Of a stretch of DNA of 64,000 nt, positions 12,505-63,200 are shown piece by piece. The first letter of the stretch is position 1. Each line of letters starts with the position of its first letter. Source of the DNA: Phyllobates terribilis. Its lineage: Eukaryota. Where the stretch lies: positions 858,390,001 to 858,454,000 of the forward strand of contig NW_027362762.1 of NCBI RefSeq assembly GCF_046119375.1, read 5' to 3'. The translations under genes were made by a program, and so were the position numbers. The notes under the pieces were generated by a model. It did no database searches. It was given only the letters and a program-made list of their open reading frames with translations, and had not been told where the DNA came from.

Positions 12505-14994
12505 TGTGGCGCCCCTGAGGGTTCGGTCGCCGCAGAGGTACTGCATCTCACCCAGAGGTGTGATATCTCACTCTCAGGTAAGGAAGGAGTACAGTTCAGG
12601 ACCCTAACACCTGCATCCAACACACACCACTCCAAGCCAGCAGGAGGGGCAAGATGCCTCCCACGTACTTGCTGAGCCCCTTTCCTGGCTGGAGTGGGGG
12701 GAACCTAGCTGGTAAGGGGAACTAACTCGCCCCCTGGGCAGTGGGGTACTCGGAGCCGGGCAACAGGAGACGATGGGGGTAGTGGTGGCAACCCGGTTCC
12801 GTGGCTCAGGGCGGTCAGACCAATGGCAGTCTGCTATGTGCTGTTCATGTTGTCCGACTATGCCACCCGTGGATTGCGGTTATTATGAACCGCCGCTGCA
12901 AGGTAATCCCCTGAGGCTGATGGTGTACGCAGCTGAGGTTGTTTAACTCCCCACGGGAAGAGTGTAGCCCCAGGGTTGTGCAATGGATGATGGGGGTGAT
13001 GGTGCAGGGAGTCCCAGTACCGGTAGTGCTGGAGAAGCGAGAAAGTACACAGACAACGTACTGCAATCCAATGTCTTTTACTCACAGTTCATGTGCTCCG
13101 GGTCACTTCTGTACAGGTAGTGACCGCCCGAGCCGTGCTGCGTCCACCAGGTGTGGGGCTCGGTCAACTCCCAGGCAGTTCAGAAGTCTGGCTCAGGACC
13201 CCCTTTTGTACTTTCTCTGGCCTGCCTCACCAGTGACCCACTTTTGTCCAGCTGCCGCGGATCTGCGCGGGTAAACGTGGGCCCCATTCCCCGCTGTCCT
13301 ATATGGTGCCTTCCTAGCAGGTTTGATGAGGTGTCGCACCAATAAATGATCACGACCTCTGGTCTTTGGCTGAGGGTAGTTTCTCCTCCACCAACTTGGG
13401 ATCCGGTACCCTTAATCTACCTCACCTTTCACCCGGTATTCTCATGGGTTCTTAGGGTCCCTTCCACCTTCTTGTTCCTGAGCCCTTCTGTTTCTCTCTC
13501 TCTTCTCCTTCTTTCCTGTTCCTTCTTCTCCTGTTCCTTCTTCTCCTGTTCCTTCTCGGCCTCTTCTCTAGGCCCACCTCTGAGCGGAGCTCCTACAGAG
13601 CCTCCACTCCCTGTCTTCTCCTCTGACTGAACAGACTGACCCTGATCTAAGATGGTGCCCGCCTTATATACCTCCCTCTAAAGCATGAGCCCAGGTGACC
13701 AGCAACCAATGGGCTCCTACCTACGCTCAGGAACCGTCCCCTCCTGCTCCTACAACACTGGGTTTTCCTCCCCACTCCAGCCAGGGACATGGTCTGTCGT
13801 GCCTGCATTACTGTCTAATGGGAGCACCGTTGAACTGTCCCTCGGAAATGGGGTGTGTGTGCTGTATGCAGCTACCTGAGCCCTGGTCCATACTCCATCA
13901 TTACCCGGGAGTGGAATATCACACCTCTGGCAGAGGTGCAATACCCCTGTAGCGGCCGAACCCTCGGGGCGCTACAGAACCACATAGTGGGTGTGGGTGG
14001 AGGAAGTAGTTAAGGGGAGCACATAGAAGGGAGATATAAAATGGGAAGCCATCTTAGTGAGTTCAGATTAGTCAGAGGAAGAAAGTGAAAGGAGCAGAGG
14101 CTCTGCAGGAGCCCTGCTCCAGAGGCGGGCCTAGCCAGTAAGGCCCAAGTCTGAGAGGAACGAGAGAAGAGAGGAGAGGGAGCAGAGAGGCTCCAGGAAC
14201 AGAAGAAAGGACCCTAGGGATATGGGCCGTGCAGAAGGCCACCCATACTCCCGCATCTGCCTGGTGGTGGAGGGGTCAGGCCATCTAAGGGGAACCGGTC
14301 CCTCAACTAGTAGAAGATTGCAAGTCTCAGCTAGAAACCGGAAGCTGCAGTACTTTATGTCCTGTAGCCACAAGTCCACACCAGTCTCACCGAGAAGGTA
14401 GCCATATAGGACCCAGGGGACAGAACAGACGTCGCCCGCCAAGGTGCGCGGGTACTGGATTGGAGATACTAGGTGTGAGGTGCAGGGAAAAGGCCAGGTG
14501 GAGGACACAGAAGGGGGTCCTGCTAAGTACTCCGGAGCTATCTGGGGGTGGACTGAACCCCTCACTGAGTAAGCACAGCACGACGAGGGAGATTACTTTG
14601 GCGCCTGTAATCTGGATTGCAATAACTGTGAGTAAAGACCCTGGGACTGCACTTCCTTGTCTCTGTATTTCTTGCTGCGCCATCAACCCCTGCACTATAA
14701 CGCCCAGCACAACCTGCAACATCATCTACACTGCCCTGGAGCTAGCTCTTCCTGTGGAGAGCCACACCATCCCTGCTGCAGTAACATCAGCTTCAGAGGA
14801 CTGCTCCGCAGCGGCGGCTCCATTTAATCGCATTCCACAGGTGGCGTCACGAACTCTATAAAAACTCTATAAATCCCCTATACTTAACCCCTTTTATTGA
14901 CCGCCCTGGGTCACGGACAGGGTCACCGCCACTGTGACATTCCCAGCATCCACCGGCCCGGCACCAGGTACCCCACGGTCCAGGGGGCGCGTCA
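12505..14994 (+). mobile_element. Solo LTR (about 1.23 kb net) split by a nested LTR
   Basis: TGTGGCGCCCCTGAGGG ... CCAGGGGGCGCGTCA; TSD TATG at 12501-12504 and 14995-14998. Confidence 0.9.
12723..13976 (-). mobile_element. Solo LTR inserted antisense into another LTR
   Basis: TSD GAAC at 12719-12722 and 13977-13980; host LTR is continuous across the junction compared with 9009-10117; close relative of 61701-62982. Confidence 0.9.
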
Positions 14995-17793: not shown

Positions 17794-18153
17794 AGCCGAA
17801 ATCTCTTTCTATGTGCTATATGTCTATGTGTGCGTGTGCCTATACCTATAGTGTAGTGTGCGGCCTATACCGATCATGTAGTGGGGGTCTATACCTATAG
17901 TGTAGTGTGCGGCCTATACCTATCATGTAGTGTGGGTGATGGGGATGTGATGGGTGTAATACTTACCCGGCCTGTGCTGAGTGAGTTCAGGGATAGTGGG
18001 CCTATATTACACTATTGTTCCTGAACTCACCAGATGGACACTAATCACAGGCCGCTCCCTGGGGCGCTGAAGATCTTCGTGCTGGTTTGATGTCAATCGC
18101 CAGCCCAGGATTGGAGGATGCCAAGTCAAGGTCCTGGTGCAGCGACATGATAG

Positions 18154-19388
18154 TGACGCGCCCCCTGGGCCAGTGCTGTTTGGGGATTACCCGGAGCCGG
18201 ATCAGATGGGGGTTGTAGTCTCCGAGTGGCGGTGACCCGGTCCGTGCCCAGGGTGTCAAACTCAGTGTGTGGCAGTCTTTACAGATGTTGTTAAAGGTCC
18301 TTAATGTCGACTACGCCACCCGTTGATTTGCGGTCACAAGGCCGCCGCTGCAGAAGGGTCCGCTGAGGCTGGTGGTGTGTGTGCAGCTCTGGTAGTATAA
18401 CCCCCAACGGGAGGGGTATAGCCTCAGGGGGTCAGGTGTAGAGGATGGTGGTAGTGAAGGTGCAGGATGATTCAGCAAGAAGACTCAGAGTCGGGCTGTG
18501 CAGTTCAGGGGTTTTTACTTACGGGTGTTCTTATGGTCACTCTGGCCTGAAGTGACCACCCGAGCCGTGCTGCGTCCACCAGGTCCTGGACTCGGCCAAC
18601 CCCCAAGTAATTCTGGAGCGTGGTTCTGAGCTCCCTTTCTGACTTTCCCTCTCTTCTGGCCGTTCTCACCAGGGATCCACCTATGTCCGGCTCCCTCGGG
18701 TCTCTTGGTGGGTACACCTCTTCTGGGTTCCCTGACCCTATACTTGGTCTGCCTTCCTGGTGGATTTGGTGAGGGTCGTGGCAGATCCTGCCCACGACCT
18801 CCGGTCTCTGGCTAAGGTGTGCTTTTCTCTCTGCCAGCTTGGGATCCGGTACCCTAGGTGCCAACCCTTCACCCTGTTGCTTGTATTCTGGGGTCTTGGG
18901 GTTCCTTCTCCTTCTCTCTGGGTCCTTCTGACTCCTCTCTCTCTCTTGGCCTTGGAGCTGGGCCCAGCCGGAACCACAACTCCCTGTCAGCCCTTCTGGC
19001 TGAGCTTCTCTGCTCTGCTCCTCAGGCTAAACTCTGACAGACTGACCCTGATCTAAAATGGTGCCCACCTTATATACTCCCTCTATGTGTGAGCTCAGGT
19101 GACCAGCACCCAATGAGCTCCTAGCCTTACCCAGATTGCTCCCCCTATCTGCCCCTACACTACTGGGATGTTCCACCCCCCTCCCACTCCAGCCAGGGAC
19201 AGACACTATCGTACCTGCACATAAACTAGTGGGAGTACCGTCGATCTGTCCCCCGGAAATGGGATGTATGTAGTGTATGCAGCTAACTGAGCTCAGTTCC
19301 ACACTCCATCCTTACCCGGGAGTGGAATACCACACCTCTGGCTTGAGGTGTAATACCCCTGTAGCAGCCAAATCCTCAGGGTGCTACA
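18154..19388 (-). repeat. 3' LTR of the CSD element
   Basis: Near-identical to 21737-22971; TATATAA at 19070-19076, AGTAAA at 18514-18519. Confidence 0.95.
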
Positions 19389-19398
19389 TTCCCCCCTG
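19389..19398 (-). other. Polypurine tract
   Basis: Minus strand CCAGGGGGGAA directly precedes the TGT of the 3' LTR; near-identical tract at 60910-60919. Confidence 0.85.
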
Positions 19399-19815
19399 GT
19401 AAATCACAGCACGTCCTCGGGCTGTAAGAGAACAAAAACATCCACAAACATACATTTTTTTTTTCATAAAACATAAACATATAAAACAATATATATATCA
19501 GCATAAACTTTTCATAAATAACACTCTTGTTCTTCCGGCCACGGTGCAACTTGTGACCGGGTAAAGTGCGACAGTCTCTTCAAGAAAAACAACAGTTTCC
19601 TATAAAACCGGTAGGGGGCGCCTTAGGAAGCGCAACTATATACAAGGGAAGGTATTAGGAAAGGAATGACCGCTCTCAGTCCTCGGTCAGTGGGAATAGG
19701 GACACACGGGTTTCAGTTCAATTTGCTGGTCCCAACGGGGACTATATTTTAACTAGCAGCAGTAACAGTTCTTATACCCTTGACGGGTAACTATGTACAG
19801 TCTCTTTACCGTACT

Positions 19816-21621
19816 TTAATGACGGCGTACTCCTGCTCCTCCCTCAGACCCGTCCGGGTCCTCTTGCTCCTCTTCACACCGTAGCTCCTCCTCCGTCAGC
19901 CGGTGTACATGGAGGGCGTAGGGTCCTTTGGCACACTTGTGCCGGGTGAACGTGACCTCGTCCCCTACATATAGGTCACGTCCTCTGCGTCCCTCCGGCA
20001 GATGGGACTCCACGTCTCTGCGGGTGACAAAGACGTCGCCGGGGGTGTGATGATCCCTGATGAAACCCCAACCGTGCTGCAGTTGGAATTTAATTACAGT
20101 CCCGGTGGCACGGGGACCATGGGCTGCACGGGGGTTCCTCCTGGTCCGGCTCTTCTGCTCTGCACTCTGTTCCTGCAGCCGCTGCTCTCGGACCCGCCTC
20201 TCTCTTCGCTCCCGGTCGAAGACCTCTAACTGCTGCCGGCAGCACTCCGCACGCTCAGCTGCGGCTGCCCGAGTCTCTTGGGTGAATCCCATGAGGTCTC
20301 CTCCGGTGGGGTCCCACGCAAACTGCGCTTCCTCCAACGAGAGTGGGGTGATCTTAACGGGCTTCGGAACCGGAATCAGGGGCTCATCTAGGGGTCTTTC
20401 TTTCCGGAGTCGGGGATGGTGGAATTCCGGTGGCCACACAAAGGGCTGCCCATCCGGGCACGTGTGCTGGGCAAACAAGTCTTCACCCAGGTGCGGCACT
20501 CTAGATGTTGAGGGCGCGGTGGTGGAAGCGGCGCCCGGGTTCGCCAGGCCTTGCGACCAGGCCTGGGGTACCCTGAACGTAAAGGGCACCGTGAAGACGG
20601 CGGCGCCCGGGGTTACTTGGCCCAGCGACCAGGCCGGTGGCTCAGTGGAGGTAGAGGGCGCTGTTGGTACTGCGGCGCCCGGGGGTACTAGACCTTGCGA
20701 CCAGGCCGGTGGTGTTTCCTGCTTTGCCGCGCTCAGGGTTGAGGCGCGTGACGTCACAGGGGTCGCGGCCGCGGCTTCTGCTTGAGGCCTTGTCTGGAGC
20801 GGTGACGATGCAGCGACGGGCACGGCAGGGGGAATTTCGGGCTCTGCGACGGGGAGCTGGGGCAGGCACGCGGTTTCTCGGCTCGGGGTAGGGACGTCCC
20901 CTTTACCTGCCTCCGTCTGTTCAGCTCCCTCCTCGGCGCCGTCTCCGGCCTTCACTCCTCCTGCACCATCCTCAGAGGCGGTCTGTCTCCTCGTCTCGGG
21001 TGGCGTGCTCCGCTGGCGGGTTCTTGCCTGCAGGGCCATCTCTCGGCTCCACTCCGTCAGCGTCTCTCGCTGCACCTGGGCCATCCTCCATGCGAGGCGC
21101 TCCAGCGCGGTCTGCGCACACTCCCGGTCTCGGGGGAGCTGTGCCAGGACCTCCACTAAGCCTAGTGGGGTTGTTGCTTGCAGCAGGCTCCTGACCACTG
21201 GGTCGGTGCTGCCTGACTCTCCTTCCATCTCCGGGTACGACTTCATCGGAGTCCTCTCCAGACTTCTTGTCTCCGGGTGCGCTCTCTCCAGACTCCTCCA
21301 GGCTGCACCCATCTTCGCTCTTTTCTTCTGTCTCCGCTCACATTGAAGGTGGTCCCGGGGCAACTTTGTGATTGTCAGTTCCAGGGGCAGTTCTCTCACG
21401 CTGATGGACATATCAATCATCACAGTCTCTGCTGGTGGGGGCGGTTTCCACTTTTGGCGCCATTTCTTGACCTGGCCCACGATGGGAGGTGACCTTTTGC
21501 CACCCTCTGGCACGCCCATAATGGCGTCCGCACTTCCAAGGCGGGAAATCTTCTGGAAATGGCGGGAAAAAGCTGCAGATGGCGGGCAACCGGCGGGAAA
21601 CGATCCGTGATGGCGTTCCAT
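19816..21621 (-). CDS. About 601-aa protein: low-complexity Ala/Pro/Thr region, coiled-coil-like segment, C-terminal cold-shock domain
   Basis: Open from the first ATG (gccATGG, 21621; ORF track extends to a GTG at 21711) to the stop. Residues at 19897-20109, GTVIKFQLQHGWGFI...DVFV...LYVGDEVTF...KGPYALHV, match the CSD consensus (GTVKWF..KGFGFI..DVFVH..L.EG..V.F..KGP.A..V). Confidence 0.85.
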   Translation of the reverse strand: MERHHGSFPAGCPPSAAFSRHFQKISRLGSADAIMGVPEGGKRSPPIVGQVKKWRQKWKPPPPAETVMIDMSISVRELPLELTITKLPRDHLQCERRQKKRAKMGAAWRSLERAHPETRSLERTPMKSYPEMEGESGSTDPVVRSLLQATTPLGLVEVLAQLPRDRECAQTALERLAWRMAQVQRETLTEWSREMALQARTRQRSTPPETRRQTASEDGAGGVKAGDGAEEGAEQTEAGKGDVPTPSRETACLPQLPVAEPEIPPAVPVAASSPLQTRPQAEAAAATPVTSRASTLSAAKQETPPAWSQGLVPPGAAVPTAPSTSTEPPAWSLGQVTPGAAVFTVPFTFRVPQAWSQGLANPGAASTTAPSTSRVPHLGEDLFAQHTCPDGQPFVWPPEFHHPRLRKERPLDEPLIPVPKPVKITPLSLEEAQFAWDPTGGDLMGFTQETRAAAAERAECCRQQLEVFDRERRERRVREQRLQEQSAEQKSRTRRNPRAAHGPRATGTVIKFQLQHGWGFIRDHHTPGDVFVTRRDVESHLPEGRRGRDLYVGDEVTFTRHKCAKGPYALHVHRLTEEELRCEEEQEDPDGSEGGAGVRRH

Positions 21622-21714
21622 GGCGGGGACCCTCTGGAACCGGCGGGAGACTTCTTTTTGAGGTAAATGTGGACTTTCTTCAGGCACGCAGTACCCGGTG
21701 GTTGCGGGCACGTA

Positions 21715-21732
21715 ATCCTGCCGACTACGCCA
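21715..21732 (-). other. Primer binding site complementary to the 3' end of tRNA-Ser (AGA/TGA-type)
   Basis: TGGCGTAGTCGGCAGGAT, 4 nt after the 5' LTR; 18/18 to the vertebrate tRNA-Ser 3' end ATCCTGCCGACTACGCCA as recalled. Confidence 0.9.
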
Positions 21733-21736
21733 AAGT

Positions 21737-22971
21737 TGACGCGCCCCCTGGGCCAGTGCTGTTTGGGGATTACCCGGAGCCGGATCAGATGGGGGTTGTA
21801 GTCTCCGAGTGGCGGTGACCCGGTCCTTGCCCAGGGTGTCAAACTCAGTGTGTGGCAGTCTTTACAGATGTTGTTAAAGGTCCTTAATGTCGACTACGCC
21901 ACCCGTTGATTTGCGGTCACAAGGCCGCCGCTGCAGAAGGGTCCGCTGAGGCTGGTGGTGTGTGTGCAGCTCTGGTAGTATAACCCCCAACGGGAGGGGT
22001 ATAGCCTCAGGGGGTCAGGTGTAGAGGATGGTGGTAGTGAAGGTGCAGGATGATTCAGCAAGAAGACTCAGAGTCGGGCTGTGCAGTTCAGGGGTTTTTA
22101 CTTACGGGTGTTCTTATGGTCACTCTGGCCTGAAGCGACCACCCGAGCCGTGCTGCGTCCACCAGGTCCTGGACTCGGCCAACCCCCAAGTAATTCTGGA
22201 GCGTGGTTCTGAGCTCCCTTTCTGACTTTCCCTCTCTTCTGGCCGTTCTCACCAGGGATCCACCTATGTCCGGCTCCCTCGGGTCTCTTGGTGGGTACAC
22301 CTCTTCTGGGTTTCCTGACCCTATACTTGGTCTGCCTTCCTGGTGGATTTGGTGAGGGTCGTGGCAGATCCTGCCCACGACCTCCGGTCTCTGGCTAAGG
22401 TGTGCTTTTCTCTCTGCCAGCTTGGGATCCGGTACCCTAGGTGCCAACCCTTCACCCTGTTGCTTGTATTCTGGGGTCTTGGGGTTCCTTCTCCTTGTCT
22501 CTGGGTCCTTCTGACTCCTCTCTCTCTCTTGGCCTTGGAGCTGGGCCCAGCCGGAACCACAACTCCCTGTCAGCCCTTCTGGCTGAGCTTCTCTGCTCTG
22601 CTCCTCAGGCTAAACTCTGACAGACTGACCCTGATCTAAAATGGTGCCCACCTTATATACTCCCTCTATGTGTGAGCTCAGGTGACCAGCACCCAATGAG
22701 CTCCTAGCCTTACCCAGATTGCTCCCCCTATCTGCCCCTACACTACTGGGATGTTCCACCCCCCTCCCACTCCAGCCAGGGACAGACACTATCGTACCTG
22801 CACATAAACTAGTGGGAGTACCGTCGATCTGTCCCCCGGAAATGGGATGTATGTAGTGTATGCAGCTAACTGAGCTCAGTTCCACACTCCATCCTTACCC
22901 GGGAGTGGAATACCACACCTCTGGCTTGAGGTGTAATACCCCTGTAGCAGCCGAATCCTCAGGGTGCTACA
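21737..22971 (-). repeat. 5' LTR of the CSD element
   Basis: Followed by the PBS; offset exactly 3583 bp from the 3' LTR. Confidence 0.95.
22653..22659 (-). promoter_or_regulatory. TATA box of the 5' LTR
   Basis: TATATAA followed about 10 nt later by a CCATTTT/GCCATCTT-like motif; equivalent sites in the other LTRs (about 9277, 13667, 14034). Confidence 0.6.
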
Positions 22972-23155
22972 ATAGCAGTGGTCCGGCATGAAGATGTTAT
23001 GGATAGAGATGATGTTTTAGGGCAGCCGAGGTGAGAAACAGCAGCAGAGATATGAGGTACGGGTCAGGAGGCAAAGAGTTCTGGGCAGTTGGCACGGGGT
23101 CATCCTGCACGGGGTCAGAACATTTGATGGGATTTATCCTCAGAGAAGGATGATC

Positions 23156-23705
23156 TTACCGTGCCCAGCTTGGTGACACGTAATTAAATCCGGGCACGGG
23201 GTTACGGGCTTTCTTTTCCTCCGGCCACTGCATAAGATGGTTCTCCAGAATTGGCCTGAATGGTGGCTGTGCTCTCCTTTTCTCCAGATCCTCCCAGCCG
23301 ATGTTGGTAAAGAATGGATGCAGTCTGATGTTCCCGCACACATCCAATCGCTTCTGAGGATTTTTGCACAGCAGCTTCTTGATACGATCTTTCAAGTCAG
23401 CATCAAGCCAAGATGGAATTTCAAGCTTTCCTTTGGTTATAGCTCTGTATGCCATATTGCTAATGGAGTCGGTGTAAAATGGGGAGCGTCCTGTGGCCAT
23501 CTTGGACACCACAATCCCCAGGCTCCACCAATCCACTGCTGTGCCATATCCTTTTTTGCGATGCACCTCGGGTGCCATGAAATGGAAAGTGCCCGTCACT
23601 CCAGAGATGTTATTGGAGGAGGTGACGCCATCTTGGGCGAGCCCCAGGTCGATAATACGAATGTGGCCATCTGCATCCAACATGATGTTTTCCGGCTTAA
23701 GATCT
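23156..23705 (-). CDS. PKC-delta-like (AGC) Ser/Thr kinase, exon 4
   Basis: Acceptor ttcattgcAG; (R)DLKPEN, DLG, GTFHFMAPE, DWWSLG and an AGC-type tail PPFRP...GFNYVSP; stop TAA at 23156-23158. Confidence 0.88.
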
Positions 23706-23873
23706 CTGCAATGAAATAAGACAATAGGATAAGAAATCTGCCCAGTGATACAGGAGATGGAGAATTGGTCACTGCAAGAATAGGAAGAATAGGCAGAAAG
23801 GAGCCCAGGAAAGTTGGGGGCAATATTTTTAGCATGTAAAGGGGACAGAGAGAAAGAGGAAAGTTCTGCTTAC

Positions 23874-23936
23874 CGATGGACGATGTTGTGTCCATGGAGG
23901 AACTGGAGGCCACATACAATCTCTGCTGTGTAGAAT
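23874..23936 (-). CDS. PKC-delta-like kinase, exon 3 (FYTAEIVCGLQFLHGHNIVHR)
   Basis: AG/GT bounded, 63 nt, phase 2-2, joins exons 2 and 4 in frame. Confidence 0.88.
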
Positions 23937-24092
23937 CTGATGGAGAGAACAGAGTGTAGTATCAATGCCATCGCTGACACCTCCTTCCCACCTGGGCTAC
24001 ATTCCCTGTCAGCCCTCTTTCTGCTACATCCCAACCTCCACTTTTATTTCCACCCCTCTTCTCACTTTTTGGTAGATCTTCCTCTTTCTCAC

Positions 24093-24346
24093 CTTAAGGT
24101 GTCGATGTTCAAGTAGCCGCACATCTTAATCAAAGCCCCCAGGCTGCCGCCGGACAGATACTCCGTGATGAAATAAGCGCGCTTACGAGACTGCTGTGCG
24201 GCATAGAGATGACATAAGAACGGGCAGTCTCTGGCTGCCAGGAGTATCCGCCGCTCTCTCATAATCATGTTTTCATTGACCTCCCTTTTCTCGATCATTT
24301 TTACAGCCGTATAGATGTTTCGGCTGGGGATTGATGTGAGGACCAC
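24093..24346 (-). CDS. PKC-delta-like kinase, exon 2 (AVK, helix C, hinge)
   Basis: Acceptor ttttctcAG, donor GTGAG, 254 nt; AVKMIEK...ERRIL...PFLCHLY...FITEYLSGGSL. Confidence 0.88.
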
Positions 24347-24875
24347 CTGAGAAAAGAAATAGACAATGCTAAGAATTCAACGTATTTGAATTTGATCAAC
24401 GGGGGTTGCAAGGCCCTCTGTCCCGCTCCAGATTCGCCCAATTTGTCAGAGCTGGGCAAAACTGTCATGAAACCTCCAAAATGGGTATGGGAGGGGGAAA
24501 ACATCCGGTTTATCTACTGCACAAGAAATGGATGGACTGAGTGGTTTGTGAGTCTGCTAGTAATCTGGACCTTATAGCAGAGCAAAGCTAAGCTATCACC
24601 ATACTGCACTGTCTGCTCTATGACTGTCTATGGGTAGATCTAAAAGGGGTTTTCCATTATCACCATCTGTGAGCTGGTTGGGGTCAGTATTGGATGTATA
24701 TCAATGTGCAGCTGATTTAAAGTTTATGAAACATAGAGGTCAAAGTATATATTGTATCCTAATAGCAGCATATATGGACCAGGACATGGAAATAAACCAT
24801 GTCCCCCAATTCCCCACAGATTTAATACCTTAGTAACCACCAATACGTATTTTTACTGACCTGCGATATAAGAGA

Positions 24876-27800
24876 CTAGCTTTTGAACCCATTCTACACC
24901 CGGGTGGCGAGCATTTTTATTGGTATATGGACTACCATGCTGTTATTTGTGCTGCCCCCATCCTGGTATTTGTGCTGCCCCCATCCTGGTATTTGTGCTG
25001 CCCCCATCCTGGTATTTGTGCTGCCCCCATCCTGTCCACCCATCCTATCCTGGTATGCATGGCACCCCTCATCCCTATCCTGGTATGCATGGCACACCTC
25101 ATCCCTATCCTGGTATCCATGGCACCCCTCATCCCCATCCTGGTATGCATGGCACCCTTCACCCCCAATCCTGGTATGCATGGCACCCCTCACCCCACAA
25201 ACCTGGTATGCATGGCACCCCTCACCCCCAATCCTGGTATGCATGGCACCCTTCATCCCAATACTGGTATGCATGGCACCCTCATCCCTAATTTTGGTAT
25301 ACATGGCACCCCTCATCCCTATTCTGGTATGTATGGTACCACTCATCCTGGTATACATAGCACCCCTCATCCCAATCCTGGTATGTGTGGCCTCCTCATC
25401 CCCCAATCCTGGTATGCATGGTACACCAACCCTCGTCATGGTATGCATGGCACCCCTCATCCCTGTTCTGGTATGTATGGTAACCCTCATCCCTATCCTG
25501 GTATGTATGGTACCCCTCATCCTGGCATGCATGGCACCCCATCCCTCATCCTGGTATGCATGGTATCCCGCATCCCTATTCTGGTACGTATGGTACCCCT
25601 CATCCTGGTATACATGGCACCCCTCATTCCAATTCTGGTATGTATGGCCTCCTCATCCCCCAATCCTGGTTTGCATGGCCCCCTCATCCCTATCCTGGTA
25701 TGCATGGCACTCCTCATCCCCCAATCCTGGTATGCATGGCACCCCATCCTTTATTCTGGTATGCATGGTACCCCTCATCTCTATTCTGGTATGCATGGTA
25801 CCCCTCAAGCCCAATGCTGATATGCATGGCACCCCTCAACCCCAATGCTGGTATGCATGGCACTCCTCACCCCCCAATCCTGGTATGTATTGCACCCATC
25901 ATCCCCAATCCTGGTATGCATGGTCCCCTCACCCCCAATCCTGGTATGCATGGTCCCCTCACTCCCAATCCTGTTATGCATGGTCCCCTCACCCCCCAAT
26001 CCTGGTATGCATGGTACCCCTCATCCCTATTCTGGTATGCATGGTACCCCTCATCTTCCAATCCTGGTATGCATGGTACCCCTCATCCCTATTCTGGTAT
26101 GCATGGTACCCCTCATTCCTATTCTGGTATGTATGGTGCCCCAACCCTCATCCTGGTATGCATGGCACCCCTCATCCCTGTTCTGGTATGTATGGTAACC
26201 CTCATCCCTCTCCTGGTATGTATGGTACCCCTCATCCTGGCATGCATGGCACCCCATCCCTCATCCTGGTATGCATGGTATCCCACATCGCTATTCTGGT
26301 ACGTATGGTACCCCTCATCCTGGTATACATGGCACCCTTCATCCCAATACTGGTATGCATGGCACCCTCATCCCTAATTTTGGTATACATGGCACCCCTC
26401 ATCCCTATTCTGGTATGTATGGTACCACTCATCCTGGTATACATAGCACCCCTCATCCCAATCCTGGTATGTATGGCCTCCTCATCCCCCAATCCTGGTA
26501 TGCATGGTACACCAACCCTCGTCATGGTATGCATGGCACCCCTCATCCCTGTTCTGGTATGTATGGTAACCCTCATCCCTATCCTGGTATGTATGGTACC
26601 CCTCATCCTGGCATGCATGGCACCCCATCCCTCATCCTGGTATGCATGGTATCCCGCATCCCTATTCTGGTACGTATGGTACCCCTCATCCTGGTATACA
26701 TGGCACCCCTCATTCCAATTCTGGTATGTATGGCCTCCTCATCCCCCAATCCTTGTTTGCATGGCCCCCTCATCCCTATCCTGGTATGCATGGCACTCCT
26801 CATCCCCCAATCCTGGTATGCATGGCACCCCATCCTTTATTCTGGTATGCATGGTACCCCTCATCTCTATTCTGGTATGCATGGTACCCCTCAACCCCAA
26901 TGCTGATATGCATGGCACCCCTCAACCCCAATGCTGGTATGCATGGCACTCCTCACCCCCCAATCCTGGTATGTATTGCACCCATCATCCCCAATCCTGG
27001 TATGCATGGTCCCCTCACCCCCAATCCTGGTATGCATGGTCCCCTCACTCCCAATCCTGTTATGCATGGTCCCCTCACCCCCCAATCCTGGTATGCATGG
27101 TACCCCTCATCCCTATTCTGGTATGCATGGTACCCCTCATCTTCCAATCCTGGTATGCATGGTACCCCTCATCCCTATTCTGGTATGCATGGTACCCCTC
27201 ATTCCTATTCTGGTATGTATGGTGCCCCAACCCTCATCCTGGTATGCATGGCACCCCTCATCCCTGTTCTGGTATGTATGGTAACCCTCATCCCTCTCCT
27301 GGTATGTATGGTACCCCTCATCCTGGCATGCATGGCACCCCATCCCTCATCCTGGTATGCATGGTATCCCACATCGCTATTCTGGTACGTATGGTACCCC
27401 TCATCCTGGTATACATGGCACCCCTCATTCCACTTCTGGTATGTATGGCCTCCTCATCCCCCAATCCTGGTTTGCATAGCCCCCTCATCCCTATCCTGGT
27501 ATGCATGGCACTCCTCATCCCCCAATCCTGGTATGCATGGCACCCCATCCTTTATTCTGGTATGCATGGTACCCCTCATCTCTATTCTGGTATGCATGGT
27601 ACCCCTCAACCCCAATGCTGATATGCATGGCACCCCTCAACCCCAATGCTGGTACGCATGGCACTCCTCACCTCCCAATCCTGGTATGTATTGCACCCCT
27701 CATCCCCAATCCTGGTATGCATGGTCCCCTCACCCCCAATCCTGGTATGCATGGTCCCCTCACCCCCAATCCTGGTATGCATGGTCCCCTCACCCCCCAA

Positions 27801-29264
27801 TCCTGGTATGCATGGTACCCCTCATCCCTATTCCGGTATGCATGGTACCCCTCATCTTCCAATCCTGGTATGCATGGTACCCCTCATCCCTATTCTGGTA
27901 TGCATGGTACCCCTCATTCCTATTCTGGTATGCATGGTACCCCTCATCCTGGTCTGCATGGCACTCCATCCATCATCCTGGTATGCATGGTACTCCGCAT
28001 TCCTGTCCTGGTATGCATGGTACCCCTCATCCCTATTCTGGTAGGCATGGTACTCCTCATCCCCAATCCTGGTATGCATGGTACCCCTCACCCCCCAATC
28101 CTGGTATGTATGGCACCCCTCATCCCCAATCCTGGTATGCATGGTCCCCTCACCCCCAATCCTGGTATGCATGGTCCCCTCACCCCCCAATCCTGGTATG
28201 CATGGCACCCCTCATCCCTATTCTGGTATGCATGGTACCTCTCATTCTCCAATCCTGGTATGCATGATACCCCTCATCCCTATTCTGGTATGCATGGTAC
28301 CCCTCATTCCTATTCTGGTATGCATGGTACCCCTCATCCTGGTCTGCATGGCACTCCATCCCTCATCCTGTTATGCATGATACCCCGCATTCCTCTCCTG
28401 GTATGCATGGTTCCCCTCATCCCTATTCTGGTATGCATGGTAATCCTCATCCCCAATTCTGGTATGCATGGCACTCCTCATCCCCAATGCTGGTATGCAT
28501 GGCACCCCTCACCCCCCAATCCTGGTATGTATGGCACCCTTCATCCCCAATCCTGTTATGCATGGTACCCCTCACCCCCGAATCCTGGTATGTATAGCAC
28601 CCCTTATCCCCAATCCTGGTATGCATGGTACCCCTCATCCTCCAATCCTGGTATGCATGGTACCCCTCATCCCCCAATCCTGGTATGCATGGTCCCCTCA
28701 ACCCCAATCCTGTTATGCATGGTCCCCTCACCCCCAATCCTGGTATGTATGGTACCCCTCATACACCAATCCTGGTATGTGTGGCCCCCTCACCCCCCAA
28801 TCCTGGTATGTATGGCACCCCTCATCGCTTTCACAGTGCACACATGCAAAATAAAAAAACACTTATACTCACCTGTGCTCCAGCGCTGCTGTGTCCTGTT
28901 CTGCCGGAGGCAGGGGGAGGAGTGCGGTGCCGGAGTAGAAGTGCGTCTTCAGTAAAATGGCGCCAGAGAGCACTATGCGCATGAGCCGATTCCGACTCCT
29001 TCACTCCTGCCCCAGTCTCCGGTGAGAAGAGAGGCGCCGCAGCACCGCTCCTCCCGGTCAGGTAACTATGTAAATATGGCGCCGGAGTTCGCGGTATGCG
29101 TTCAGGGTCAACGCATACAGCGATAACCGGAGCCATACACACTCCTCTTACCGGTAACGGCTCCATGCGTTCTTCTGTCTGGAGCCAGACTGCGCAGGCG
29201 TGTCGCACTTGCGCAGTCTGTAAAGACTTCAGACAGAGGGTCGCTTGTAGCGTTATATTATAGA
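24876..29264 (-). mobile_element. Non-autonomous Helitron carrying a ~3.9-kb minisatellite, in kinase intron 1
   Basis: Minus strand starts TCTATAATATAACGC (29264) and ends with a CCCG...GGG hairpin then CTAG (24876), followed by T. Confidence 0.7.
24945..28825. repeat. Minisatellite (about 21-32-bp units, CTGGTATGCATGG core) with 1086-bp and 715-bp higher-order duplications
   Basis: Identical or near-identical ORF translations recur at +1086 (25747/26833, 26257/27343) and +715 (26833/27548). Confidence 0.95.
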
Positions 29265-31011
29265 CTAGCGTTCCCCGACAGGTGACTATCCTGTAACTGT
29301 CACCTGTACATTATAGCTGACAACTTGCTGCATCAGCCACGATCAATGTTGGCACACACCATGGCCGTTTAACCCCTTAGATGCTGCTGTCAATAGTGAC
29401 TACAGAATATAAATAGTTAGCAGAGTGCGGGGGCTTCCTCTTTAACCCCATTGGTACCCTGAGATCTTGATTGTGTGGTCCTGATTTTTGCCATGGCAGT
29501 TCATGGCTAAATAACAGCCTTAGAGTCTGCCGGCTATAGTGACCTGTTGAGAAGTTATCAAAATTTAGGTGATAAAAATACATTTTTTCATTCCTTTTAT
29601 TCCACTTTGTATTAACAACTGAAAATCAGCTGAAGGGTTAATGAACTACCTGAAAGCAGTTCTGAATACGTTATGCGGTGCGGTTTTTAAACTGATATAA
29701 TTTTTTGGGTGGGTTCCTATATATAGGACCCCCAAAGTCACTTCAAAACTGAACAGGTCCCTATAAAAATAAGTTTTGTAAATTAACTTGAAAAATGAAA
29801 AATTACTGCTACATTATTAAACCATCTAAAACGCTAACAAATAACATTTTTCAAATGGTGCTGATGTAAAGCAGACAGGAGGGAAATGTTATTTATTCAT
29901 GTTTTTGTGTGGTATGACTATCTGGATTAAAGGGATAATCATTCAAAGTTTGAAAATTGCAAATGTTGTTACATCTTTGTCAAATTTCTCATATTTTTAT
30001 AAATAAACGCAAAACATGTCAACATAAATTTACCAATTTTATTGTGTCACGAAAAAACATTCTCAAAACCAATGGGATATGTCGAAGCATTCCAGAGTTA
30101 TTACTACATAAAGTGACACTGGTCAGATATTAAAAAATTGGTCCGGTCACTAAGGGGTTAATCCCTGAGATCAGCTCTTCGATTAATCAGAATACCCATT
30201 TATAGCAGCACTACACCTAACCATGGTGATTAGATGAACCAATATGTGAAATAATCATAGGGGCAGGGGAGCACATGGATATTTTTTCAATCATCCCACA
30301 GAAGTGCACTTCAATGAATGTCTACCTACAGAAGATGACGAATGGAGATAAAATGGCAAATATAGGTTAATAAAAAAATATATATTGACAGACCCGGACC
30401 TTTAGGAGGGGAGCATTTGGCATTATCATGCACTTGCTCTTCTTCTAAAGGGTTAAAAGTAAATAGGGTTTTTGGCGTGAATAATGTTCTCCAGCTGGGT
30501 TTTGCCGCCACAGCAGCAGGGTCTGGATTGGCTGCGGATCCCGCCAGTAGTGAGGTGTCGCAGGGGAAGATTGCGTTTCCTCCCCTGGCTGCACCTGCTG
30601 ATAGGGGAGTTATTTTGTAAATAAAATAAGTGGTGGGGGTATATAGTGACTGGCAGCGCCCATGAGCTTGTCAGTCCTCGGCGCTGCCATAAGAAATTGC
30701 TGAGCCCACCCTCCCTCCCCCCTTTATTTTGCTTTAAAGCTTTCATTTTACTAGTCACGGCCTGAGGGGTTAGTCATTCGGGGAACCGAATGAATAATAA
30801 GTTATAGGTAATGTAAACGGGCTTGAGCTTTGGCTGAGCTGCGGTTGTTTATAATTATTACGTTATTAATTGAAGTTACCTGTATTATATGATTTTAATA
30901 AAGGCCGTGGCCAATTAATCTTCCAAGCAAGTCAAGTGTGTCGGTGTAATTTTGTTTAATCATAGATAAGTTTAAGGTATGGTTTGTGCATTGTAATGCC
31001 AGAAAACTTAC

Positions 31012-31266
31012 TGTTCCAAAGCTGCCCCTACCCAAGATTTTATGGATGGTAAAATTGCTCATAATAAGCGTGGGGTAGGGGCTGGATGTTCCGGGGTCCC
31101 TGCTGCATCCAGGTGTTGGCGCTTCATCCTCCAATCCATGGTCTTCGGCCTCTCTTCTCTTCTTGGTGATATTATTTAATCCAGTGGTATCACTGTCGTC
31201 TTCTTTGTTCCTCTTCTCTTCCCGCTTCTTCTGATCGCTTCCTTCTCTGTGTCCAGTAGACGCCAT
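31012..31266 (-). CDS. PKC-delta-like kinase, exon 1 (basic N-terminus plus Gly-rich loop)
   Basis: ATG at 31266, 255 nt, ends HKILGRGSFGT|GTAAGT in phase 0; spliced product is 373 aa with no stops or frameshifts. Confidence 0.85.
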
Positions 31267-32446
31267 TCTCACATATATCTTCCCGTCTGTAGACTTCCGT
31301 CCGATCACTTCAGCCAACAGTTGAAAGTAAATGGCAGTTGGTCGTGTGCAGGTGACGTGAGGTCAGAGGTGATAGAACCCTCAGGTGGCACCAGCCAGGC
31401 AGCGGCTCATGGCCTGCTCTGCCCTATACACTGATGTGGGCATCATGGGTGACAGTTTAGAGTCCAGAGGAACGGCAAAGAACTTCATGGCGGCTTCTAA
31501 TGCTGTTTTTTTATTTTCATATTACATTCTTTTTATCCACATATACAGAAACTTAATAATACATTAAATAACCTAACATACTATAAACTACCAGCTCTCC
31601 CCATTACCATTGTAATCCTTGGGTTTCCATATATTTCAAAAATCATTACTTTTATCTTTTATGTTATAATACTATTTCTCATATATCACAGTTACTAGAG
31701 ATTGTTTTTAAAATATTTAGGAAACCATGTATAATTTCCTTTACACTTCACAAATACTTGCTACTTAGCGTTGATATCACATAAAAGCCCAATAAAATCC
31801 ATTTACGTTTTTGGGTGTTACATGAAAAAATATGGAAAAGTTCACGAGGTATGAATACTTTTTCAAGGCTCTGTATTGCCGGCCATTCTCTGCAATGCTT
31901 TAATAATTCTATTTTCCCGCTATATTTCCTGTTACATTGATATAAGAGTCTGTTGTACTTATTGAGTATTTTCTACTATTCTTGTATTTTTCCTGGGAAT
32001 CTTGCTCTTATTTTGTGTATGGGGAGGATTGTCCTTTCTGTCCATGACTTGGGACATGTTTTGGTCATTTTTCATACGTTGATGTGTATTTTTGATTTTT
32101 ATAATCCGTGGATTTGTTCTGCTTTTTTCTTGATAGCGCTCACAATAAAGATATCCTATTATTTCCTTGGATGTCTGATCCTTTGTTTAATTCTTGCTGA
32201 CAATACTGTAACGGTACATTTTTGGCTGGCACACTGGTCTTCATTTAGGTTGCACCTACCCAACCTTACTGCCCAAATAATACAAGCAAAATCAGCATCC
32301 TGCTGTCATATAGCAGCATTTTACTATAAGCAGTTCTCTTCTGTCATCTCCTGATGAAACGTGGTGGTGCGTGCACATTATATTACTAGCTAATTGTCAG
32401 TACTATAAGCATGATAGCACAAGGCCCAAAAATATAAACAATTAAC

Positions 32447-33482
32447 TTAAAATCAATGTGTCACCAGGTTTTTGCTACCCCATTTGAGAGCAGCATGATG
32501 AAGGGGCAGAGACCCTGATTCTAACAATATATCACTTACTGACTACTGTCACGGGTGTGTCAGGTGTTATAGACAGTAGCACTGGATCTGCCTGTAGAAG
32601 GTCACTGCGCTTGGCATTGCAGACGCCTTCTTGATTCCTTCTTCCTTTAGGACCCAGCAGCGACCTCTCTCATGCTATTAATTGAAACATCCTTGCATGG
32701 GAGTTAAAAACTCAGTTTGCTGCAGAAAATCGCCGGTGATACTTCTATATTCCTTTGTGCAGCTGTTGGCTGGTTTCTTCTCTGGTGCCCTTAGAGGACA
32801 GTTGGCGTTTCTCTTCTGGTGTCTGCTCAAGCAAAATTTTTCCCATTTGTTTGTCTACCTTGTTGTCTTTAGTTTGTAGTGGGGCTGACTAGTGCTCACC
32901 CCCTCCCCCTCTCTATCTAGGGCCAAGCTCTAGGGATATACAGGGTTTAGGGTCCTGCTCGGCGATAGGTGTGGAACCTATGTAGGGACAGTAGGATAGG
33001 CAGGGTGATATTAGGACTGCCTAGGGGTCTCCACTTCCCCTTTGCCTAGTGTTTTGGCTTCCTCCCCCTCTTCCCTCTGTGTTGCACTTAGTCTTTCCCA
33101 CACCTTGCGTGACAGCTGCTTGCTACAGTTTTTATGAAATCACTGTTTTCTCTTGTAGACCTCAGAATGCAGAGCAGTGTATAATCCGCCCACATCACTA
33201 ATTGGCAGATCTCTGTGTACACTGTGCACAGGCAGAAAGCTGCCAATCAGTGGTGGGGGTGGATTTATACAGGGCTCATGAATTTGGAGGACTTCCTGAT
33301 AGTAGGTTTACTAGTACTAGTTTACTAGTCCTCTAGTGATTTCCTGTTAATAAAACAGTGATTTTATCAAAAGTACAGCAAGCAGCACAGTAAGTGATAC
33401 ATCACTGGAATCAGTGTCTCTGTCTCTACATTACGCTGCTCTCAGATTAGGTGACAAAGACCTGGTGACAGATTCCCTTTAA
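32447..33482. mobile_element. T2/Kolobok-type MITE
   Basis: TTAA...TGTCACCAGG / CCTGGTGACAGATTCCCTTTAA termini. Confidence 0.65.
32547..33114. mobile_element. Probable solo LTR of a different family
   Basis: TGTCACG...CGTGACA inverted ends, 568 bp, interrupting the MITE; flanks ACTAC/GCTGC match only imperfectly. Confidence 0.5.
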
Positions 33483-61619: not shown

Positions 61620-63200
61620 GCAGGGGTGCGTTCTCCTCTTCCTCCATTCTGCACACATTCAGGGCGTACCACCCATGTTCTCCATGGTGACGGGTGTAGA
61701 TTCACTCGCCCCCTGAGCCGTGGGGCACTCGGATCCGGGCAATAGGCAAACGGTGGGAGTAGTAGTGGCAACCCGGTTCCGTGGCTCAGGGTGGTCAGAC
61801 CAGTGGCAGCCTTTTAGATGTTTCAGATAATGTCCGACTACGCCACCCGTGGATTGCGGTTATTAGGAACCGCCGCTGCAGGGCGGACCGCTGGGGCCGA
61901 TGATGTATGCAGCTGGGATGGTGTGACTCCCCACGGGAAGAGTGCGGCCCCAGGGCAGTGTAGTGGATAGTGGGAGTGATGGTGTTGAGAGTCCCCGTAC
62001 CGTTAGTGCTGGAGGAGCGAAAGAGCACACAGACAACGTACTGCAGTCCAATGTCTTTTACTCACAGTTCAGGTGCTCCGGGTCACTTCTGCGCAAGCAG
62101 TGACCACCCAAGCCGTGCAGTGTCCACCAGGTGAGGGGCTCGGTCAACCCCCAGGCAGTTCAGGAGCATGGCACAGGACCCCCTTCAATCCTTTCTCTGG
62201 CCTGCCTCACCAGTGACCCACTTTTGTCCAGCTGCCGCGGACTTGTGCGGATAAACGTGGGCCCTGTTCTCTGCTGTCCTATATGGTGCCTTTCTAGCAG
62301 GTTTGATGAGGTGCTGCACCAATAAATGGTCACAGCCTCCGGTCTTTGATCCTCCACCAACTTGGGATCCGGTACCCTTAATCTGCCTGATCCTGCACCC
62401 TGGATTCTCGTGGGTTCTTAGGGTCCCTTCCACCTTCTTGTTCCTGAGCCCTTCTGTTTCTCTGTCTCTTCTTCTCCTTTTCTGTTCTGTCTTCTCCTCC
62501 TTCCCTTGGCCTCTTCTCCAGGCCCACTTCTCCTTCTCCTCTCAGGCTCCGGCCTTTTCTCTAGGCCTGCCTCTGAGCAGAGCTCCTACAGAGCCTCTGC
62601 TCCCTGTCTTCTTCTCTCTCTGCACAGACTGAACTTCTCCCTCAGCTAAGATGGTGCCCACCTTTTATACCTCCCTCTGACCATGAGCCCAGGTGACCAG
62701 CAACCAATGGGCTCCTTCCTACGCTCAGGAACCAACCTCTATCTGCCCCTACAGCACTGGGTGTTCCACCCCCCTCCCCACTCCAGTCAGGGACGTAGTC
62801 GGTCGTGCCTGCACTTCTGTCTAGTGGGAGCACCGTTGAGCTGTCCCTCGGAAATGGGGTGTGTGTGCTGTATGCAGCTAACTGAGCCCTGGTCCATACT
62901 CCACCCTTACCCGGGAGTGGAATACCACACCTCTGGCAGAGGTGCAATACCCCTGTAGCGGCCGAACCCTCGGGGCGCTACATAGATGACCCTGTCTCCA
63001 GGGTACTTAGCTGCAGTCGGAGCAGAAGCTGCTTGTGGACAGCCAGGGTCAGCGACACCAGAAATCAGGGGCATGTCCTCCGCGCTCGCCTTCTGTACAT
63101 CAAGTGCATACCACCCCCTCTCTCCTGAGTATTGTGGTAACCAAGCCGCTCCTGGGATGTATGGCATAGACAGTGGCAATATGAGGGCTGCGGCAGCACA
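61620..63200 (-). pseudogene. Disrupted cold-shock-domain ORF remnants (two CSD C-terminal halves)
   Basis: Removing the nested LTR gives YPGDRVIYTRHHGEHGWYALNVCRMEEE, aligning with LYVGDEVTFTRHKCAKGPYALHVHRLTEEE of the young element; a second ERGWYALDVQK at about 63091-63125. Confidence 0.7.
61701..62982 (-). mobile_element. Solo LTR nested in the CSD coding region of the older element
   Basis: TSD TAGA at 61697-61700 and 62983-62986; close relative of 12723-13976. Confidence 0.88.

Follow-up and report, generated by a model that had tools for sequence, protein, structure and literature searches.

A stretch of 64,000 bp from the Phyllobates terribilis genome (NCBI RefSeq assembly GCF_046119375.1, contig NW_027362762.1, positions 858,390,001 to 858,454,000 of the forward strand; hereafter, the window) was analyzed, and an intact long terminal repeat (LTR) element with an interior of 2348 bp was found on the minus strand at window positions 18154-22971. 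All the hallmarks of LTR retrotransposons were present: paired LTRs with TG...CA ends, a target-site duplication (TSD), a primer-binding site (PBS), and a polypurine tract (PPT). A first-pass annotation, made from the sequence alone, had described these cis elements as intact, and we confirmed the two 1235-bp LTRs, which differ by five substitutions, the ATAG TSD, the 18-nt tRNA-Ser PBS, and the PPT. With a rate that we take to be 1-2e-9 substitutions per site per year, the insertion would be ~1-2 million years old. The PBS (TGGCGTAGTCGGCAGGAT) begins 4 nt past the 5' LTR, and three of 10 candidate tRNA loci in the genome were tRNA-Ser genes (AGA, TGA, and TGA) terminating in its exact complement. 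Most of the remaining candidate loci, plus two earlier candidates, were rejected, as they were element junctions rather than tRNA genes.

The interior holds a single open reading frame (ORF) of about 600 codons, as the annotation had reported. It encodes 601 amino acids when counted from the first ATG (21621-19816, minus strand). This upstream in-frame ATG at 21621 is not conserved, and subfamilies differ in their frames upstream of position 21519; the ATG kept across subfamilies is that at 21519, which gives a protein of 567 amino acids. The reported lack of reverse transcriptase (RT), integrase, and protease was upheld, as the ORF scan and the Pfam scan detected none of them in the element, the latter returning a cold-shock domain (CSD) alone, and there was no tblastn match to three loci of the autonomous element described below. 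No Rfam match at the gathering level was found within the element. The locus is thus a strongly supported non-autonomous variant of an LTR retrotransposon (Table 1).

Table 1. Features of the element in the window (UTR, untranslated region; omega, ratio of nonsynonymous to synonymous substitution rates, dN/dS)
Feature	Positions	Strand	Remarks
Target-site duplication ATAG, left copy	18150..18153		
3' LTR, 1235 bp	18154..19388	-	AGTAAA poly(A)-like signal at 18514-18519
Polypurine tract AGGGGGGAA	19389..19397	-	Similar G-run plus AA ends young helpers
3'UTR hairpin	19667..19689	-	Stem 6 bp, loop AGGACUG(A/U)GAG
ORF from conserved ATG	19816..21519	-	567 aa (GCCATTATGG)
Cold-shock domain	19903..20106	-	Residues 472-539; Y-box-like; omega 0.07
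Long Arg/Glu-rich helix (predicted)	20137..20271	-	Residues 417-461, N-terminal to CSD; region omega 0.21
Three-helix segment (predicted)	21010..21201	-	Residues 107-170; omega 0.24; without detectable helper-Gag homology
Leader, first 61 nt	21676..21736	-	93-98% identity with autonomous Gypsy
Primer-binding site, 18 nt	21715..21732	-	tRNA-Ser(AGA/TGA)
5' LTR	21737..22971	-	ATTGG at 22693-22697, TATA at 22654-22659
Target-site duplication ATAG, right copy	22972..22975		

The proposed CSD was verified with Pfam (PF00313; E 1e-7; 32 bits, cut-off 27), and it was the sole Pfam family matched at E<=1. The ORF had been said to end in this domain; the CSD does lie close to the C-terminus, but a 26-aa acidic tail follows it. 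AlphaFold predicted the helices listed in Table 1 and an oligonucleotide-binding (OB) barrel at residues 471-540, with the remainder at low confidence (mean pLDDT 50.7). The five-stranded barrel predicted for the CSD was supported by Foldseek (CspA top, E 1e-6, target TM 0.87) and VIA (CRHSP-24 top among cluster representatives, Z 10.8, rmsd 2.7, 80 aligned), and the ESM Atlas gave leads to bacterial CSDs alone, all below 0.9. A 15-sequence profile scored 50-52 bits for YB-1/YBX2, 42 for CspA, and 27 for Lin28, and it aligned to YB-1 with one gap. As the best scores and this alignment point to YB-1/YBX2, capture of the domain from a Y-box gene is favored. GWGF and VFV are kept in the element CSD, and RNA binding is expected of it. 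The protein resembles the Y-box proteins (YBX1 and YBX2/FRGY2) in the same longer loop, an Ala/Pro-rich region before the CSD, and charged stretches around it, whereas the identity is ~30% and two motif aromatics are replaced. Members of the Y-box family have a CSD near-identical to that of YBX1 and a long charged C-terminus; the element protein has neither that CSD nor a long basic/acidic C-terminal domain and is Y-box-like by profile only. Its predicted helices are, we presume, untypical of Y-box proteins.

The abundance of the family was estimated in the 10.6-Gb genome using an exact pattern of the LTR end and primer site. The pattern gave 42,172 matches and its reversed control gave none, so the junction matches are not due to chance. 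The first 40 listed junctions were sampled; all lie within the first 12 Mb of one chromosome, and thus, the sample is not random. They comprised 26 CSD-type loci, 12 Gypsy-type loci (10 near full length and two deleted), one chimera, and one unassigned locus. Scaled from this sample, the genome holds ~27,000 CSD-type junctions (roughly 20,000-33,000), or ~130 Mb, an estimate that counts tandem copies separately and misses subfamilies with other LTR ends. The claim of recent mobility was substantiated by LTR pairs that are 98.4-100% identical in 24 of the 26 CSD copies. The interiors of these copies diverge by up to 35% from the window copy, and these two observations together show that the family is old and that many of its branches were active recently. 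Two side observations concern the junctions. Head-to-tail tandem copies with one common LTR are frequent in these families (L011, L012, L058, and L092), and at six junctions (L093, L094, and L098-L101), the primer site runs into 30-45 nt of reverse-transcribed tRNA-Ser sequence.

An autonomous partner was sought for the element, which the annotation had taken to be non-autonomous, and a candidate Gypsy helper with shared LTR ends and PBS was found at the 12 Gypsy-type loci among the 40 junctions. The helpers are 7.9 kb long and encode a Gag (PNMA-like, Retrotrans_gag, and a CCHC knuckle), followed in an overlapping frame by protease, RT, RNase H, and integrase. Pol was open in five of the 12 sampled helpers. 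In helper L040, the Pfam families zf-CCHC, PNMA, Retrotrans_gag, protease, RT, RNase H, and integrase were all detected, and it therefore has the Ty3/Gypsy organization (gag with capsid, and pol in the order PR-RT-RH-IN) that the window element lacks. The two elements have the LTR tips, U5, tRNA-Ser primer site, leader, PPT, and 4-bp TSD in common, and over the stretch between the poly(A)-like signal (22102) and the LTR end, the identity of the window LTR with that of the helper is ~75%. Unlike the helper, the window element carries an unrelated CSD ORF in place of gag and pol, and the U3 and most of R are likewise unrelated to those of the helper. Its U3 and interior gave neither a blastn nor a tblastn match to the helper, and a CSD frame was seen in none of the 12 sampled helpers. 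Separately, an antisense splice-donor-like sequence (GGTAAAT/GGTAAGT) lies directly past the shared 61-nt leader in the window (21660-21670) and in helper leaders.

The annotation had recognized neither a capsid nor a CCHC knuckle in the ORF, and the profile searches agreed. No gag family was found in 15 of 15 members, while the helper Gag was detected, and the ORF profile matched the helper Gag with an hhalign probability of 0.1%. Two structure models gave helices and the CSD alone, with low confidence elsewhere. These results count against reading the ORF as a highly diverged gag, a reading that draws on the largely low-confidence AlphaFold model and on the known vertebrate pol-less LTR elements, which are reported to be gag-only, the ORF of Bik-1 having been recognized as Gag by structure prediction alone (PMC12067270). 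No capsid was listed in the fold searches, in which the CSD filled the lists and the N-terminal model was not searched; a hidden capsid fold in the ORF is unlikely. A likeness between the helical segment and the helper Gag helices, noted by eye, was unsupported (hhalign 0.09%). The predicted complex of residues 100-172 with the coiled-coil region of the helper Gag scored 0.02, which is evidence neither for nor against an interaction.

Codon analysis was performed on 32 intact ORFs from 45 extracted interiors, from which broken ORFs and those without the conserved start were dropped, and kappa was estimated. Omega was 0.315 overall, 0.073 in the CSD (2ΔlnL 310), 0.21 in the pre-CSD region, 0.24 in the helical segment, 0.55 in the Pro/Ala low-complexity region, and 0.74 in residues 1-97. 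The CSD value is far from 1, and the ORF was intact through the CSD in 16 of the 26 sampled copies, which bears out the proposal that the family keeps its CSD protein. Shifted-frame controls gave omega values of 2.5 and 4.5, and the value of 0.19 for the antisense frame with shared third positions is a shadow of the coding frame. In the CSDs of 27 non-duplicate copies, shared variants had a nonsynonymous-to-synonymous ratio of 9:72, compared with 19:11 among private variants. The CSD is thus purged during replication and drifts after insertion; selection acts on replicating element lineages, unlike what would be expected of a gene domesticated by the host. The reading frame was preserved by 24 of 41 shared indels in the ORF; in the 3'UTR and the LTR, the corresponding in-frame counts were 13 of 70 and 15 of 93. 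Such pairwise counts are noisy, as compensating gaps get split. Passive carriage of the ORF is excluded by the CSD omega and the contrast between shared and private variants, and we consider it very improbable that the ORF is either a diverged gag or a host fragment without a role for the element.

Exchange between the CSD elements and the helper was observed in several forms. In a tree of U5 and the leader, helper and CSD rows intermix with four label changes, at least three of which are forced by strong branches; one of the four stems from L023, a DNA-level chimera. In a further chimera, L048 (G000:C1:9101909-9110909), a 298-bp piece of the CSD element, drawn from the end of the ORF and the 3'UTR, lies between helper-derived 5' and 3' parts. 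The L048 LTRs are 99.4% identical, a TSD is present, and the chimera junction occurs in 2,015 genome copies. Mosaics of this type are reported as an expected outcome of co-packaging and template switching (PMC6894440). From these chimeras and the shared cis signals, the window element is likely copied in trans by the co-resident Gypsy. Older CSD elements have a different tRNA-Ser-type primer site and match older Gypsy elements (L128 and L133) rather than L040; for example, L079 (CSD) and L128 (Gypsy) are 81-83% identical in U5 and 85% in the 3'UTR, and L079 does not match L040. The older elements thus form a second helper-satellite pair. As a separate observation, the ORF-less L048 family retains both 3'UTR hairpins of the CSD element, and the captured piece stops just past the second.

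The 3'UTR hairpin was present in 25 of the 26 CSD elements (one to four copies, often in tandem) and in none of the 12 young helpers. Its pattern had 57,103 genome matches; among 100 matches listed, 96 were fully Watson-Crick, three had a wobble, and one had a mismatch, with three stem types alone, as counted by eye. The 3'UTR motifs are common to the window element and a sister Gypsy family, of which older autonomous copies carry the hairpin once. Among 12 single-hairpin loci, four had open CCHC-gag and RT frames, and four more matched helper pol DNA. As the hairpin occurs in older autonomous Gypsy copies, it is an inherited lineage signal that the satellites kept and amplified, and it plausibly has a role in packaging.

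All 22 CSD-type LTRs in which TATA was found have ATTGG at a distance of ~38 bp upstream, and the same pattern found no TATA in 11 helper-type LTRs. CCAAT boxes close to TATA are commonplace in promoters, and a protein acting on this one would work on every copy with the same U3, hence under weak cis selection. For these reasons, we regard it as improbable that the CSD protein is a transactivator of the LTR promoter, binding DNA via the inverted CCAAT (Y-box core), even though the U3 is element-specific and the name of YB-1 derives from Y-box binding (PMC6040738).

We consider it moderately probable that this gag-less and pol-less element is copied by the co-resident Gypsy and that its Y-box-like CSD protein binds its own RNA and raises the share packaged and copied. 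The element lacks a capsid and enzymes but carries all the cis signals that reverse transcription and integration require. These signals are common to a gag(CCHC)-PR-RT-RH-IN Gypsy, with which it appears to recombine as co-packaged RNAs do. Along replicating lineages, purifying selection maintains the ORF protein, most strongly in the CSD, and after insertion, the protein decays. A non-essential gene kept under such strong conservation in a ~27,000-copy family would need to benefit chiefly the RNA that encodes it, or close kin of that RNA, and thus, a cis-biased factor is favored. In cis, the new protein probably binds the message that encodes it, which it would stabilize, export, or deliver to helper particles in germ cells. 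It may be a private counterpart of the service that host Y-box proteins render to retroviral RNA; YB-1 is reported to support the RNA-dependent production of HIV, MLV, and MMTV (PMC6040738), and CERV to export Cer1 RNA (PMC10309623). The source of the domain was probably a host YBX mRNA, from which it was captured in the distant past via template switching, a process reported to place a host mRNA piece between the arms of an LTR element (PMC5131818).

Several findings weigh against this explanation. Of two junctions that mark a deletion of the CSD, one has 76 dispersed occurrences and the other has 31, many of them on small contigs, and the CSD-less chimera adds its 2,015 copies. As CSD-less derivatives multiply, the CSD is not needed in cis, and any cis benefit must be quantitative. 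The hairpin as a CSD-specific response element was weakened by its presence in older autonomous Gypsy copies. Neither structure search singles out YB-1, CspA being first in one and CRHSP-24 in the other. In comparison with YB-1, K replaces the Trp of 'KWF' and T/N replaces the His of 'FVH'; we take these two to be RNA-stacking residues of YB-1, and the specificity must therefore differ. The N-terminal 97 residues are weakly constrained (2ΔlnL 4.4). Contigs of four runs of uncertain type covered 30 of 30 bins and were not used for or against transcription.

The spread of CSD-less derivatives also bears on two other roles of the protein. The annotation had suggested a nucleocapsid surrogate, that is, an in-particle annealing chaperone for tRNA annealing, dimerization, and strand transfer. 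CSD proteins have chaperone activity, and a basic helix lies ahead of the CSD fold. As CSD-less elements are reverse-transcribed and integrated and the helper Gag has its own intact CCHC knuckle, the protein is not required as a substitute for nucleocapsid; no capsid is available for fusion either, and the suggestion is disfavored, with a low probability. Alternatively, the protein may act in trans against host control by shielding family RNA from silencing or by displacing the oocyte Y-box masking protein, so that bursts benefit near-identical relatives. The derivatives and the chimera would then spread like cheaters on a shared product, but cheaters should erode a pure public good, and yet 16 of 26 copies are intact with a CSD omega of 0.07. 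FRGY2 has been described as the mRNA-masking protein of Xenopus oocytes (PMC1477856), and Gypsy RNA is reported to be abundant in the ova of another poison frog (PMC6278860), whereas no silencing-suppressor feature was detected in our analysis. Action in trans is thus unlikely, although less so than the chaperone role, and binding of the element's own RNA is preferred. The annotation had also suggested a factor that captures a helper's particle and a translational regulator in oocytes or embryos, and the protein might have either role.

The window element was compared with known systems. Xenopus 1a11 and xretpos(L), zebrafish BHIKHARI (Bik-1/2), and mammalian MaLR likewise have LTRs, one long ORF, and no pol, and they need a partner. 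Of these, 1a11 and xretpos are embryo-expressed in Xenopus (PMC4585706), Bik-1 is recently mobile with a 617-aa ORF that is a Gag (PMC12067270), and MaLR is copied by MERVL (PMC5131818). The 1a11 and Bik ORFs are Gag-like, whereas the window ORF has no detected capsid or knuckle and has a CSD at its end; in contrast to the whole group, its partner is a Gypsy in the same genome and its copies number in the tens of thousands. The CERV of Cer1, which acts on the RNA of its own element (PMC10309623), and the extra ORFs of plant elements resemble the window ORF as element-encoded proteins that are neither Gag nor Pol. Such accessory proteins reside in gag-pol elements elsewhere (PMC7264820), whereas here, the accessory gene is the sole gene. 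Accessory domains in LTR elements are known, with no CSD in the part covered of the source (PMC6338049). Known LTR-mediated host captures are young and low-copy; the CSD capture is old, under element-level selection, and found in several families.

The nearest named proteins are from Phyllobates, Ranitomeya, and Anomaloglossus. Related CSDs occur in other dendrobatoid frogs, known here from protein sequences alone, and further CSD subfamilies were found using relatives from other frogs as queries. A second CSD family (L084-L090, L092, and L103-L122) has unrelated LTRs (TGTAATAG...CCTTACA) of 1.02 kb, the same primer site, 471 junctions, and an Arg-rich N-terminus, and its CSD omega is 0.16 (14 copies). 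No RT frame of a helper for this family was found in 20 sampled of the 471 junctions. The element CSDs form two groups in a tree, which has long branches and no host outgroup. Further divergent CSD ORFs were seen at L091 and L083, the nearest in the tree being the unnamed proteins P0017 and P0033; that of L091 lies after a tRNA-Ser-type primer-like site, and no LTR pair was found there. Two public gene models fuse an element CSD to a host R3H-domain gene (P0041) or to a transposase-like nuclease (P0042), and these fusions are probably annotation artefacts from inserted copies.

Other features were noted in the window. A protein-kinase-like open frame with an RDLKPENI motif (23156-23869, minus strand) ends ~185 bp from the 5' LTR and looks like either a pseudogene or one member of a multi-copy kinase family. 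Two older LTRs on the minus strand (12855-13976 and 61771-62982) are 67-81% related to the element, have no interior match, and are likely solo. Minisatellite arrays with 16-39 bp units lie at 24.9-28.9, 2.9-4.8, 7.0-7.6, 10.6-11.5, and 43.0-44.2 kb.

A literature search, whose coverage was short on subscription papers, supplements, Repbase, and Dfam, yielded no described CSD-encoding LTR element, and the family may be catalogued without comment in Repbase or Dfam. The single cold-shock mention in a carp paper was rejected, as it concerns a host gene and not a retroelement. Most non-autonomous LTR elements encode either no protein or Gag alone. The main text of a poison-frog transposable element paper contains neither 'cold shock' nor 'non-autonomous' (PMC6278860). 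The wider proposal, to which we give even weight, is that frog genomes host an undescribed satellite LTR class that gave up gag and pol and domesticated a host Y-box CSD as its only gene, is selected across several LTR lineages and dendrobatoid genera, out-competes its Gypsy helpers by ~2:1, is exploited by ORF-less chimeras, and makes up >1% of a 10-Gb genome.

A selected host RNA-binding domain in an element without gag or pol would imply an uncharacterized step that favors the element RNA in a borrowed helper particle. The helper, the coding satellite, and the ORF-less chimera form a three-tier natural system in which cis-preference and cheating may be measured from copy numbers. In current annotation, the ORFs of these elements appear as 'uncharacterized' genes of the host or are joined to real genes. 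At ~27,000 copies and ~130 Mb, as estimated from the 40 loci, the family bears on the large size of poison-frog genomes.

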